Origin: Gammaproteobacteria bacterium
GTDB lineage: Bacteria; Pseudomonadota; Gammaproteobacteria; Eutrophobiales; Eutrophobiaceae
Reading direction: 5' to 3'
Assembly: GCA_965204045.1 (NCBI GenBank)
Contig: CBDBDW010000002.1
Span: 3,026,260-3,090,259, forward strand
DNA length: 64,000 nucleotides
Shown here: positions 2,885 through 32,055 of the stretch, one piece after another
Layout: every line of letters starts with the position of its first letter
Numbering within the stretch: the stretch's first letter is position 1
Notes under the pieces: generated by a model
The model's database searches: none
Told to the model about the DNA's origin: nothing
The model's input: the letters and a program-made list of their open reading frames with translations, nothing else
Translations under genes and position numbers: made by a program

Positions 2885-4128
2885 TATATCTGTCCCCCCA
2901 AAATCAGTACCAGGTAGAAAACCGCGAACAATGCCAGCGCCCAGATACAGGCTACGCTGTAGCGGGTCAGTCCCGGTGCGGGTCTCATCGTTACCGGCAC
3001 GTCCGCCGAGTGCATGGACCGGTGGATCAACCAGGCCAGCACCGGCGCGGTAAGAAAAGCCAGGGTAGTGGCGATGTCAATCAGTGTTTTAAAGGACTGG
3101 ATATAAAACAACAGGATGCACAGGGATATCAGGATCATCGCCAGGATCGAGGCCAGGTAGATTCTGAAGTGCAGTTTTTCCGGCAATTGTTCTTTCCTGA
3201 AGCAACTCACCAATGCGCAGACCGTGCGCGGGTAACCGTCGTGAATTACCAGCACCGTGGACAGCATGACCGCAAACGCGGCAACGGCAATGATCGGCCT
3301 GGTCCACTGTCCCAGGAGCGAGGTATATATGCTCACCAGTTGGGCTGAAAACTCGGCGGCGGAGGATGAGAACTGCTGGCCGGACCCGTGCATCACGGCC
3401 GTCCCGAGCATCAGGAAGCAGATCGCGGTCAACAGGGTCGAGAAATACCCGACGTGGTAATCCAGTTTTACCTCTCGTCCGGACAGTTTGTCCTGTTTGT
3501 CCTTTTCCAGCACCCACAATGATTGCCAGATACAGGTTTCAAAAGGCGCCGGCATAAAACCAATCAATGCCGCCAGGAACAGAACCGATGACCTGTTCAA
3601 GACATCGGGAGTGAGGATATCGGCCTGTCCCCATTCAATCAGGGGCGCGGCCAACGCCGTTGCCGCCAGGGTCGAGATAAACAGGACGAGGAGCAGAACC
3701 TTTGTAACGCTGTCCAGCCATCGATACTGTCCGGCTGCCAGGCAGGCGCCGGAAAAAACACAGATACCGGCAGCGACCACCGGGATAGGCAGGTCCAGGT
3801 CAAAACTGATAACCGCCAGTCCGGATGTCACCAGGACAACTGCCGCAAACCCGGTGAACATGACACAGAATATCACCACTGCGCACAGCAGCACCGCCCA
3901 TGTCCCCTGCCTGAGGAAACCGGTCAGCAGGTGCTGTCCTGTGGCATGGGCGTATTCATGACCGAAGCGGAAAGTCGGATACTTCATCACAAAAGCCAGC
4001 AGGATAAACAGCAGCAGGTCCATCCCGTATAAGGCGCCGGCGCGGGTCGACTGTACCAGGTGTGACACCCCGATAGCCGCCGCAGCCATCAAAAGACCGG
4101 GGCCGAGAATGGTAAACAGCCTGCTCAT
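2884..4128 (-). CDS. NRAMP-like/APC superfamily membrane transporter
   Basis: LGPGLLMAAAAIGVSHLVQSTRAGA N-terminus and about 11 hydrophobic segments. Confidence 0.8.
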   Translation of the reverse strand: MSRLFTILGPGLLMAAAAIGVSHLVQSTRAGALYGMDLLLFILLAFVMKYPTFRFGHEYAHATGQHLLTGFLRQGTWAVLLCAVVIFCVMFTGFAAVVLVTSGLAVISFDLDLPIPVVAAGICVFSGACLAAGQYRWLDSVTKVLLLVLFISTLAATALAAPLIEWGQADILTPDVLNRSSVLFLAALIGFMPAPFETCIWQSLWVLEKDKQDKLSGREVKLDYHVGYFSTLLTAICFLMLGTAVMHGSGQQFSSSAAEFSAQLVSIYTSLLGQWTRPIIAVAAFAVMLSTVLVIHDGYPRTVCALVSCFRKEQLPEKLHFRIYLASILAMILISLCILLFYIQSFKTLIDIATTLAFLTAPVLAWLIHRSMHSADVPVTMRPAPGLTRYSVACIWALALFAVFYLVLILGGQI

Positions 4129-29797: not shown

Positions 29798-30085
29798 TCA
29801 CTTCGCCAGTGCTTGCAGTACGGTATCCGGCTCCTTGGAGAGAACGTTTAATAAAACCAGGGCCGGGCCATTAGGGTGCCTGTCACCGCGTTCCCAGTGC
29901 CGTAGCGTGTTGACACTGATGCCAAATGCTGAAGCAAATTCACGTTGACTCATGCCAACGTCAGCCCGGATATTTTTAACATCTATGGGGCTGAGTTTAT
30001 GTATCACAGCCTGGGGGACTTTTCCTTCAGTAAAATCTATCGCTTCCTCCAAACCTGTTTTAATACTGTCATATACTTTATTCAT
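29798..30085 (-). CDS. HigA/NadS-like HTH antitoxin
   Basis: MNKVYDSIKTGLEEAI...GMSQREFASAFGISVNTLRHWERG. Confidence 0.85.
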   Translation of the reverse strand: MNKVYDSIKTGLEEAIDFTEGKVPQAVIHKLSPIDVKNIRADVGMSQREFASAFGISVNTLRHWERGDRHPNGPALVLLNVLSKEPDTVLQALAK

Positions 30086-30250
30086 TACGTGCCTCTTTCG
30101 TAATTCTGCCTTAGAACTCGTGTCAACTTGGCAAGCGTATTTCGTTCCGCTTTGCTGAGATTTTCCTTCTCTCCCTTGCTGAACATCGTAAGCAAAAATA
30201 AATGAAGCAGCTTTACGCTGATATTCAGGCAGTTCCACTATTGTTTGCAC
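30085..30250 (-). pseudogene. RelE/HigB-type toxin with internal deletion and frameshift
   Basis: N-terminus MQTIVELPEYQRKAAS joined out of frame to C-terminus LFLLTMFSKGEKENLSKAERNTLAKL..*, with TAATG coupling to the antitoxin. Confidence 0.75.
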
Positions 30251-30488
30251 ATATCAAATAGTAATCCAATGGACTACCGTTGTCAATCTATACACAACGA
30301 CATAAATAATGTCACGTCATGGTTCGTCATTCCCGCGCAGGCGGGAATCCAGTGGACAATAAAACTCCTTATAATGAATGTTTGCTTACTGGATTCCCGC
30401 CTGCGCCGATGTGTGGACTCCTCCCCCCTTATCATGGTAGTTAAGGGGGGAGAAGCAATTTTGTTTAACCAACAACGAGGAGTCCACG

Positions 30489-31562
30489 ATGAGAGATACT
30501 AACACAATCGGCATAGATTTAGCGAAGCACACGTTTCAGGTGTGCGTGGTCGACAAGCAGGACCGGATGGTGAGCAACCAGGCGATGGGCCGGACGGCGT
30601 TGTCGGCGTATTTAGTGCGTCAGGCGCCGGCCTTGGTGGTACTGGAGGCGTGCGGGGGTGCGCACTATTGGGGTCGCTTAGCGGAGTCGTTCGGTCATCA
30701 GGTGAAGATTCTCTCGCCGCGTTGGGTGTTGCCGTACCGTCAGGGCCACAAGACGGATGCGCGGGATGCGTTAGCGGTGGCCCGTGCGGGGCAGCGGGAG
30801 GAATTGCCGGGGGTGGGGTTGATGGGGGTGGAGCAACAGAGTCTGCAGTGTCAGAAACGCGTGGCGGAGCATCTGACGGACCAATTGACGGCGACGGGGA
30901 ACATGCTGCGTGGGCTGCTGGCGGAGTTTGGGGAAGTGGTGCCGAAGGGGGAGGCGGCGTTACGGCGTGAGTTGCCGCGCGTGCTGGAGGAGGCGGAGAA
31001 CGGGTTGCCGTTGTCGCTACGCCCGCTCTTGGCGCTGGCCTGGCAGTTATGGCAGGCGCAGTCGGCGGCGTTGCAGGAGGCGGAGCGGCAGTTGGCAGAG
31101 CAAGTGCGCGTGACGCCGGCGTGTCGGTCGCTGCTGACACTGGCCGGGGTGGGGCCCAAGAATGCGTTGGGGTTGTATATTGCCCTGGGGGACGGGCAGG
31201 CGTACCGGCATGGTCGGGCCGCGGCGGCCTGTATTGGCTTGACCCCCAAGCAGCACAGCAGTGGGGGCAAGGTGCGCCTGGGGTCGATTGGCAAGCGCAG
31301 CGGGGACAAACGCTTACGTGCCTCGCTCATTACCGGCGCCCATGCGGTACTCCAGGCGCTGGCGCGGCGGGAACCCCGTAATGACGTTGAGGTGTGGCTC
31401 AAAGACCTGGCGGCCCGGCGTGGCGCCGGGCGGGCGGCGGTGGCCCTGGCAAACAAAACCGTGCGTACCGCCTGGGCTATGCTGCGTTACCGGACGGAGT
31501 ACGATCCGGGCCATGCCAACCAGCTGTCGGGCAACCCGCCGGCGGCAGTGGCCGCCGCCTGA
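30489..31562 (+). CDS. IS110-family DEDD transposase/recombinase
   Basis: IGIDLAK, VLEACG, KTDARDA, GLTPKQHSSGGK, AAVALANK. Confidence 0.96.
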   Translation: MRDTNTIGIDLAKHTFQVCVVDKQDRMVSNQAMGRTALSAYLVRQAPALVVLEACGGAHYWGRLAESFGHQVKILSPRWVLPYRQGHKTDARDALAVARAGQREELPGVGLMGVEQQSLQCQKRVAEHLTDQLTATGNMLRGLLAEFGEVVPKGEAALRRELPRVLEEAENGLPLSLRPLLALAWQLWQAQSAALQEAERQLAEQVRVTPACRSLLTLAGVGPKNALGLYIALGDGQAYRHGRAAAACIGLTPKQHSSGGKVRLGSIGKRSGDKRLRASLITGAHAVLQALARREPRNDVEVWLKDLAARRGAGRAAVALANKTVRTAWAMLRYRTEYDPGHANQLSGNPPAAVAAA

Positions 31563-31564
31563 AC

Positions 31565-31790
31565 GGCCAGCCGGGAGAGAGGCGTCAGCGTTTATGTTAT
31601 TTCCTTGCAAGACGGCACAACGTGATAGTGGTCAGACCCACCTTCAGGGACCCTGCTCATTCCCGCGGCGTGAGAACGCCGTTGCGCCGAAGAGGGCTGA
31701 AGGGGCGAACACATCTTGGGCCAGGGGTCGCACCCCAATCAGAGTCCGTATATACGACCGCAGTCTGCCTTCACTATCGATTCGTGCCTA
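31565..31790 (+). ncRNA. putative bridge/seek RNA of the IS1111-type element (ends approximate)
   Basis: Stem-loops whose internal loops match the target (TCATTCCCGCG 31657-31667, TGCGC 31683-31687) and the circle junction (ACACATC 31709-31715, ATATACGA 31750-31757). Confidence 0.75.
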
Positions 31791-32055
31791 CTTGCAAAAC
31801 GGGAGGAGTCCATATAGGGAATGACGAACGTGGCGCAATTTATGACGTTACGTATAATTCCATAGCATATAATTCCGTAGCTGAATTTAGGAATGAAATC
31901 TGTTGACAGAACAGGCGCCCACGCCCCGCTTCCTGGAAATTGATTGTGAGGTCTGAGATATATATCGTCTTCGTTCTTCACAGACCAGCCAGACACAGCA
32001 CCTGAATATCCTGAAGGACCTGCATCTTAAAGTATGCTCGGAAATAAGCGTAGAA

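Follow-up and report, generated by a model that had tools for sequence, protein, structure and literature searches.

An IS1111-group insertion sequence at a fixed position in REP sequences and its putative two-module guide RNA

The DNA considered here is a stretch of 64,000 nucleotides from a Gammaproteobacteria bacterium (assembly GCA_965204045.1, contig CBDBDW010000002.1, positions 3,026,260 to 3,090,259 of the forward strand), called the window below. At positions 30407-31816 of the window lies an insertion sequence (IS) that interrupts a repetitive extragenic palindromic (REP) sequence. Judged from the sequences of this element, its copies and its relatives, it is very probably an intact and recently expanded member of the IS1111 group, whose DEDD/Ser recombinase would be guided by an RNA from the element's own 3' non-coding region. 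REP targeting, a circle promoter and a downstream guide RNA are general biology of an already described kind; the points of note are the clean natural record of specificity, an apparently programmed discordance between donor and target dinucleotides, and an RNA model that links a marine clade to ISEc11. RNA-guided IS110/IS1111 recombinases are under development as programmable insertion tools, and the rules of the IS1111 group are far less worked out than those of IS621. What is said below of published systems is taken from excerpts of PMC11187229, PMC11208158 and PMC11208160.

The element, its copies and its target site

The features of the element and of the REP sequences around it are the following (position in the window, strand, description):

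30325..30352, minus: intact partner REP in inverted orientation (forming a REP doublet), which shows the sequence of the empty site; this 28-mer is present without interruption at 195 places in the genome
30389..30406, plus: left half of the interrupted REP, CTGGATTCCCGCCTGCGC (18 nt), the last 5-6 nt of which would be read by the left target guide
30407..31816, plus: whole insertion sequence, 1410 bp, GC content 63.8% (window 57%), with boundaries set by the restored REP
30407..30413, plus: 7-nt left extension CGATGTG, whose first two bases, CG, are the donor 'core'; element positions 2-8 are complementary to the right donor guide
30414..30425, plus: left subterminal inverted repeat TGGACTCCTCCC, 12 bp, read from the sequence; the motif is also found at the ends of relatives
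30489..31562, plus: transposase/recombinase gene, 357 aa, with D10, E53, D90, D93 and S258-G259, the last in GLTPKQHSSG
31801..31812, plus: right subterminal inverted repeat GGGAGGAGTCCA, the complement of the left one, read from the sequence and followed by TATA to the element end
31817..31826, plus: right half of the interrupted REP, GGGAATGACG (10 nt), the first 8 nt of which would be read by the right target guide

The predicted protein matches the Pfam families PF01548 (DEDD_Tnp_IS110, E 3.7e-13) and PF02371 (C-terminal, E 5.5e-16), and also the NCBIfam family NF033542, 'IS110 family RNA-guided transposase', with 268.4 bits against a cut-off of 140. Its C-terminal part aligns with the solved recombinases of IS621 (8wt6) and ISCro4 (9t56), GLTPKQHSSG (250-259) lying on GLTPRRYESG, and SSG falls there on ESG, where the catalytic serine is located. 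With the solved chains the N-terminal part aligns weakly, and the DEDD assignment thus rests on the Pfam domain and on the motifs IGID (D10), LEA (E53) and KTDARDA (D90, D93), which are all present. In a tblastn search against plasmids, the protein showed 37% identity with an ISEc11-family transposase and 33% with one of the IS4321 family. The element ends read CGATGTGT... on the left and ...CCATATA on the right, and the non-coding parts measure 82 nt upstream of the gene and 254 nt downstream, the longer side being the 3' one, as in the IS1111 group. A 7-bp left extension is stated for the IS1111 family (PMC11187229). Subterminal inverted repeats of 7-17 bp are a mark of the group, and the pair found here measures 12 bp. 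The sequence-only reading, made earlier from the letters of the window, had placed an IS1111-type element at 30407-31816, and this is borne out by the family matches, the subterminal repeats, the left extension and the long 3' side. At the level of sequence, the marks expected of an IS1111-group element and of a seek/bridge RNA encoded downstream are all present, with a partial match where the second loop and the donor ends are concerned.

We now consider the target. Joined to each other and reverse-complemented, CTGGATTCCCGCCTGCGC and GGGAATGACG give exactly the intact REP at 30325-30352; the same reading had claimed that excision restores the REP exactly, which this neighbour and the 195 uninterrupted 28-mers confirm. 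The host genome (4.94 Mb, 56% GC) was searched with blastn and copies longer than 1000 bp were counted. There are 48 of them, 45 being 100% identical across the full 1410 bp. At the right junction all 48 read ATATA followed directly by (G/C)GGAATGAC, and at the left junction 47 of the 48 read ...TGCGC followed by CGATG; the one exception, which closes a tandem array, is without its first 29 nt. Position and orientation within the REP are thus constant across the copies, and insertion is site- and orientation-specific with no target duplication. Whether other copies sit at the same REP position had been suggested as a check, and an intact member directed at the REP family of its genome had been inferred; both hold. 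That the element is also active and reprogrammable is something we infer from its sequence.

The copies fall into 44 clusters that do not have both 300-bp flanks in common. The flanks that seven and six copies have in common are short (left 130-170 bp, right 30-90 bp) and form a repeated mosaic containing the REP doublet, and such short sharing is the reason why the clusters are counted as separate insertions. Their number is put on this basis at about 44, or at 31 by the most cautious count. We have also considered that another mobile element carries the IS; this was rejected, since the neighbouring open reading frames (ORFs) are unrelated by Pfam (TetR, TonB plug, DUF3604, luciferase-like) and the shared flank is short.

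The genome contains 538 REP-like 28-mers, and the occupancy of the different site types is as follows:

TGCGC GG GAATGA (13-mer, TGCGC joined to GGGAATGA): 45 occupied, 238 empty
TGCGC CG GAATGA (variant whose other REP arm is changed to compensate): 3 occupied, 11 empty
TGCGC AG GAATGA: 0 occupied, 12 empty
TTCGC with CG, AG or GG: 0 occupied, 108 + 80 + 41 = 229 empty

REP subfamilies with T instead of G at position -4 are thus never occupied (TTCGC 0/229 against TGCGC 48/309, Fisher p = 6e-13), and this holds also when only sites with a GG core are compared (0/41 against 45/283, p = 0.003). Between GG and CG cores, on the other hand, no difference in occupancy is observed (p = 0.48). The base at -4 is therefore discriminated and the first base after the insertion point is not. 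In effect the genome holds a natural experiment, in which one clonal element has made about 44 separate insertions in the presence of about 240 perfect empty sites and several hundred unused near-cognate REP variants, and the occupancy record displays the discrimination expected of a guide that is strict at -4 and indifferent to the first 'core' base.

Some observations on the surroundings can be added here. Outside the window, at G000:C2:459699-468426 of the same genome, six copies form a head-to-tail array with four identical 60-bp spacers, each made of a REP right half, 32 nt and a REP left half. Small deletions are found in the two final copies, the very last being that without its first 29 nt, and the small indels are possibly assembly errors; the array probably arose through unequal recombination between two neighbouring occupied REPs. 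The REP itself is part of a larger mosaic (30325-30406 together with 31817-31826 in the window, and other copies in the genome) with two inverted REPs separated by about 35-70 nt; in many copies inverted GTAACTACTCACCCC / GGGGTGAGTAGTTAC form its borders, and it resembles a REPIN or a unit of the miniature inverted-repeat transposable element type. Only one of the REP's orientations is used by the IS. A 150-aa ORF at 29798-30250 (minus strand) adjoins the REP doublet, and the C-terminal part of its translation resembles a helix-turn-helix regulator of the XRE type.

The element also occurs in sequencing runs, one of which may be the source of the window. At least half of its sampled words were found in 9 runs among the runs X1-X20, including sponge and marine metagenomes, and none of the runs listed is recorded as RNA. 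Assembled contigs of X1, X4 and X5 contain the full-length element with no other letters (apart from one 1-nt gap in X5), and in X4 and X5 the REP junctions are those of the window, while X2 holds a diverged copy at very low depth (13 other letters, 22 gap positions). Loose ends in the run contigs are uninterrupted REPs, and no joint leading from the right end back to the left end was seen in these contigs, a type of data that cannot reveal circles.

A conserved predicted RNA downstream of the gene

In the 3' non-coding region the following features are recognised, the guide assignments being predictions:

31631..31769, plus: conserved seek/bridge RNA core of two modules, defined by alignment A1, RNAalifold, pair counts and the covariance model R1 (113.9 bits, the sole R1 match in the window)
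31641..31703, plus: module 1, target-binding stem-loop, with helices P1 (31641-47 with 31697-703) and P2 (31651-54 with 31693-96) and the apical P3 (31667-71 with 31676-80)
31657..31664, plus: right target guide UCAUUCCC on the 5' side of the loop, complementary to the top strand GG + GAATGA (8/8 match)
31683..31690, plus: left target guide UGCGC + CG + A (UGCGCCGA) on the 3' side of the loop, with the top-strand sequence of the left junction (the left half of the REP and the first 3 nt of the IS)
31705..31761, plus: module 2, putative donor-binding internal loop, with helices P4 (31705-07 with 31759-61), P5 (31719-22 with 31744-47) and P6 (31724-27 with 31733-36)
31709..31715, plus: right donor guide ACACAUC on the 5' side of the loop, complementary to IS positions 2-8
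31750..31757, plus: left donor guide AUAUA + CG + A (ATATACGA) on the 3' side of the loop, with the top-strand sequence of the joined ends

The minimum free energy (MFE) fold of the non-coding region contains the module 1 stem-loop together with a long closing stem that pairs 31604-31636 with 31763-31797. The stem CCTTCAG/CTGAAGG with CCCT/AGGG and the cap GGCGT-GAGA-ACGCC, which had been drawn by eye, is recovered in this fold; alone it is not significant, and its confirmation comes from covariation. Relatives were used for this because the single-sequence folds do not beat shuffled sequences. One scan, with one genome per species, gave 57 loci with proteins 33-50% identical, mostly from marine gammaproteobacteria, and a second one, of metagenomes, gave 60 further loci with a best protein identity of 61%. 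Alignment A1 is an unguided MAFFT alignment of 29 distinct non-coding regions over window positions 31631-31769, and A2 contains 53 further sequences aligned to R1, mostly metagenome loci outside the model building. RNAalifold applied to A1 gives six helices, the same as those drawn by hand, with 25 pairs of which 18 have compensatory changes. The pair counts are:

A1, 29 sequences: 89.8% of cells paired (shuffled 72.2%; slid by 1-3 columns 30-44%); 140 double-change cells (shuffled 45); reached by 0/500 shuffles
A2, 53 sequences: 93.4% of cells paired (shuffled 75.3%; slid by 1-3 columns 33-48%); 222 double-change cells (shuffled 55); reached by 0/500 shuffles

Changes on both sides are seen in 18-19 of the 25-26 pairs, a number of pairs that is reached by 13/500 shuffles for A1 and 2/500 for A2, and the observed covariation score is reached by none of the 500 shuffles in either alignment. 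Rfam has no family that matches the RNA region; three weak matches (E 0.1-0.97) correspond to the hairpin of the REP doublet.

In the genome of the element R1 has 48 matches, all within the IS copies. R1 also matches an ISEc11-family locus (L088, 1692-1830), downstream of the transposase gene, with 48.3 bits and E 5e-11, and the guide columns of this match read CAGUAUUUU and GUGAAAAU, that is, the published ISEc11 target GTGAAAATACTG (PMC11187229). This region of ISEc11 yields a seekRNA that is essential and can be reprogrammed, as reported by Siddiquee et al. 2024 (PMC11187229). At the level of the covariance model, the RNA core is thus homologous to a region that is experimentally proven as a seekRNA. 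Together the alignments and the model define an RNA of two modules in a clade numbering at least 80 elements and tie it to ISEc11.

Next, the guides of module 1 can be compared with the target. The sequence-only reading had pointed to an 11-nt loop TCATTCCCGCG at 31657-31667. The match is present, and an 11-mer match is reached by 6/2000 shuffles, but only its first 8 nt, UCAUUCCC, lie in the guide register shared with relatives, the last GCG extending into the apical stem and out of that register. The TGCGC (top strand) noted in the same loop is likewise present and can be extended to UGCGCCGA at 31683-31690, equal to the left junction; being identical to the top strand, this segment would pair with the bottom strand. 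In the register as corrected from the alignments, the 5' guide would comprise 8 nt (2 + 6) and the 3' guide the left half, CG and A. The top-strand match is located 5' of the bottom-strand match, the order reported for IS1111 members by Siddiquee et al. (PMC11187229). Two alternatives for the register were rejected: a role of the GCG that follows the right target guide as handshake or guide extension, as relatives have AAA, CAA, CUG or GAG there with no consistent match, and a register shifted by one base, as in locus L106, as it predicts a left junction one base shorter than observed. L106 itself (a metagenome contig, 55% identical) sits in a REP of the same general family (..GCCTTCG followed by CGGGAATGA..), has CG at both junctions and is inserted one base to the left of the point used here, and another relative, L110, has the same right target guide, UCAUUCCC.

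The correspondence between guides and targets was examined by comparing the guide columns of the alignment with each element's own flanks while the pairing was permuted. In 22 non-redundant elements, guide and flank agree at 240 of 308 positions (mean under permutation 110), a value that 0/20,000 permutations reach; 5 of the 29 rows had been dropped from this set because their flanks were short. For 24 metagenome and plasmid elements outside the model building the matches are 279/336 (0/5,000 permutations), and over all 48 non-redundant elements they are 543/672. Guide loops do therefore covary with targets, the check that had been suggested together with the original claim.

The donor segments follow the element ends to differing degrees. 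ACACATC (31709-31715) and ATATACGA (31750-31757), which had been noted in a second region, are both there, in conserved loop positions that co-vary with the element ends. In 48/48 elements the IS begins with the same two bases as the core of the left donor guide, and the guide also tracks the right end, which is ATATA or ACATA, with ACAUA accompanying CCACATA ends. For the right donor guide the tracking of GATG or GATA ends is partial: the closest relatives, L103, L106 and L107, share GATGTGT with ACACAUC, and L071, L072, L146 and L148 have GATA.. ends with ..UAUC in the 5' loop of module 2. Durrant et al. place the IS1111 bridge RNAs in the right end and report that their donor-binding bases are often in a multiloop (PMC11208160).

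It should be pointed out that a number of observations weigh against the reading of this region as a two-loop guide RNA. The folds taken alone are no better than those of shuffled sequences (z -1.1 and -1.7), and A2, being fitted to the R1 structure, leans towards pairing. The permutation tests are not fully independent because related elements have targets in common, although the effect is still large. The REP is palindromic, such that 8 nt of the 5' guide can be read in the top strand of its other arm as well; the strand assignment rests on the relatives. As to the donor side, the matches of ACACATC and ATATACGA are by themselves near chance (327/2000 and 50/2000 shuffles), and several relatives combine ACACAUC with a GATGTAT end, which gives one mismatch in the right donor guide. 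Finally, an 82-nt seekRNA is sufficient for ISEc11 transposition (PMC11187229), and if this RNA corresponds to module 1 only, which is our own reading of it, module 2 need not be essential.

The last points lead to the alternative that fares best, namely that module 1 alone is the guide, that module 2 (31705-31761) serves as scaffold, as processing signal or for protein binding, and that the recombinase reads the IS ends through the 12-bp subterminal repeats. The 82-nt seekRNA alone gave ISEc11 transposition at 42% (PMC11187229), the donor matches are near chance in this window taken alone, the mismatch just mentioned recurs in several relatives, and the inverted repeats are long and conserved. 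Even so, we consider this scenario unlikely, because the 3' loop of module 2 equals right-end bases plus the first two IS bases in all 48 elements and follows both variables, whether IS position 1 is C or A and whether the right end is ATATA or ACATA. The four loci with GATA.. ends and a ..UAUC 5' loop point in the same direction, as do the donor-binding nucleotides that Durrant et al. report in IS1111 RNAs (PMC11208160).

Another option is that the protein recognises the shape of the REP hairpin, as REP-associated tyrosine transposases do, with the RNA being only a cofactor or regulator. The target is indeed a perfect palindrome and the insertion lies inside its 3' arm. However, the same palindromic architecture with one base changed at -4 is never used (0/229), relatives insert into non-REP sequences that match their loops, and reprogramming has been demonstrated for ISEc11 (PMC11187229), which together make this option very improbable. 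Least of all do we believe that the loop matches are chance or a passive remnant, a captured piece of REP with a copy of the ends, for although TCATTCCCGCG is literally a REP fragment in a genome rich in REP (the 538 28-mers above), in 47 other elements these alignment columns fit the flanks of the element concerned, which are different ones, the loops that contain the columns belong to a structure maintained through compensatory changes, and the 11-mer match is as rare among shuffles as stated.

The core dinucleotide

We now return to the preferred two-module reading and to the dinucleotide at the insertion point. In 40 of the 48 non-redundant elements, this one included in the set, the first two bases of the IS (CG or AG) are the same as the first two bases of the right flank. 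The present element has CG as donor, while the REP has GG in 45 of the 48 genomic copies; the right target guide reads GG, and the left target and left donor guides read CG. All 44 common-REP copies with both junctions intact have CG on the left and GG on the right, and the three copies in the variant REP have CG at both junctions. Donor and REP dinucleotides thus differ at the first base alone and share one base. The earlier claim that no shared core dinucleotide is duplicated at the junctions stands for the 45 copies in the common REP and fails for the three in the variant REP. On the sequences compared, the missing dinucleotide is an exception of this element and not a family trait, the clade normally sharing it between donor and target. 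A rule of the IS621 type, with the same core in target, donor and all four guide segments, does not hold in 45 of the 48 copies; it does hold in the three variant-REP copies and in 40/48 non-redundant elements.

The discordant elements, 8 of the 48, all have the same polarity. The right target guide of five of them (this element, L036, L038, L103 and L119) spells the dinucleotide of the flank and not that of the donor, which means that the discordance would be programmed and not off-target. The genomes of L038, L085, L044, L032 and L031 were searched with the L038 element for further copies of discordant relatives, and at most one full-length match was found in each; the polarity outside the element's own genome rests accordingly on single copies. 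Among the 11 empty CG-variant sites there is no uncompensated CG 'footprint', nine being REPs with a compensating change in the other arm and two lying in other contexts.

Top-strand cleavage in IS621 falls 3' of the CT core, and there is a strong preference for cores that match (PMC11208158, PMC11208160). A 2-nt stagger over a mismatched base would leave a heteroduplex and, after replication, both types of junction. The one-way outcome seen here suggests instead that the exchange takes place 5' of the dinucleotide (or overlaps its second base only), or that one strand always prevails. The junction sequences suggest, in other words, an effective crossover 5' of the dinucleotide, or a process in which the information of one strand always wins.

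A more general proposal, which we regard as a serious possibility and put forward tentatively, is that in this IS1111 clade, unlike in IS621, the 'core' would not be a region of obligatory donor-target identity that ends as heteroduplex, and that the element would be programmed for a target GG differing from its own CG. Donor and target would then need no dinucleotide in common. If this is true, the cleavage geometry differs from the 2-nt stagger solved for IS621, and a single base change in the RNA has raised the number of usable sites about 20-fold (283 GG sites against 14 CG sites).

Predicted junction promoter, proposed cycle and known systems

Two further features concern expression:

31792..31797, plus: -35 hexamer TTGCAA of the predicted circle-junction promoter; TTGCAA, 17 nt and TA + CGAT, which becomes TACGAT once the ends join
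30412..30488, plus: 5' leader hairpin formed by the left inverted repeat and a third copy of its motif, GAGGAGTCCA (30477-30486), the ribosome-binding site lying within this third copy

It had been claimed that joining the ends creates a TTGCAA-17-TACGAT promoter that exists only in the circle. At the sequence level this is well supported: TTG is found at the -35 place in 30 of 31 related elements, with a joined -10 of TACGAT (14) or TAAGAT (17), and in the linear form no sigma70-like site was found upstream of the gene, the scan giving one weak match inside the ORF. The potential for a circle intermediate with a junction promoter is thus present and conserved. The leader hairpin has a calculated energy of -36.7 kcal/mol (z -4.0, reached by 1/200 shuffles), and GGAGTCCAT/CACATG precedes the start codon in most relatives. 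It is plausible, and on the folding model likely, that the hairpin blocks translation of read-through transcripts, and transcripts from the junction promoter, which would start inside the left arm, would then escape this block.

By analogy with ISEc11 and IS621, the following cycle can be proposed. The element would excise as a circle, and the joined ends would create the TTGCAA-17-TACGAT promoter that drives the gene and the RNA. The RNA-protein complex would next pair the circle junction with an empty REP: in module 1, the 5' side UCAUUCCC would pair with the top strand of the REP right half and the 3' side UGCGC-CG-A with the bottom strand, while in module 2 the 5' side ACACAUC is complementary to IS positions 2-8 and the 3' side AUAUA-CG-A corresponds to the joined right and left ends. 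Recombination without duplication would follow, always between ...TGCGC and GGGAATGA..., and with CG in the donor and GG in the target the dinucleotide would always stay with its right-hand partner.

Compared with known systems, the closest resemblance is to ISEc11, which has a transposase of the same family (the ISEc11-family copy being the one found by tblastn), subterminal repeats, a 7-nt left extension, a downstream non-coding region, a circle-junction promoter and an RNA that is found by R1, with the top-strand match likewise 5' of the bottom-strand match. It differs in that its target is a linear 12-bp sequence and not a REP, in that the protein identity is low, and in that ISEc11 repeats 4 bp at both junctions (one copy being part of the IS according to the paper), whereas the present element shares one base only. 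ISPa11, which targets a Pseudomonas aeruginosa REP, and ISPpu10, compared here by description and not by sequence, are also of the IS1111 group with a fixed REP position, but in other REP families and other hosts. A co-purified RNA is reported for ISPa11 (PMC11187229), and both are among the predicted bridge RNAs of PMC11208160.

IS621 of the IS110 group (Durrant et al. 2024, Hiraizumi et al. 2024) also targets REPs, has two loops that each read both strands of target or donor, a Ser-Gly nucleophile motif that aligns with the present one, and a promoter rebuilt at the circle junction. Its RNA, however, is upstream of the gene with the guide order reversed, and it has no long inverted repeats. 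Its CT core must match in donor, target and both loops, whereas here donor and target differ and the loops disagree (GG in the right target guide, CG in the left target and left donor guides).

The relatives in marine gammaproteobacteria and metagenomes (loci L031-L087 and L103-L157) have the same ends, (C/A)GATGT(A/G)TGGACTCC ... GGAGTCCATATA, and the same RNA architecture (102-129 bits), and many of them target REP-like ...ATGAC(G) sequences. They differ from the present element in their guides and targets, and the best protein identity is the 61% of L103. One of these loci, L053, has two equal-scoring R1 matches, 2636-2779 and 3479-3622, 843 nt apart, which suggests a duplicated right end or a second partial element. 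In Vibrio-related genomes, two stretches (L097, G003:C23:77617-77762, and L099, G001:C6:1144-1290) match the RNA-coding part alone (query 1144-1288) of the L038 element; they lie away from the full element and may be orphan guide-RNA genes or IS fragments.

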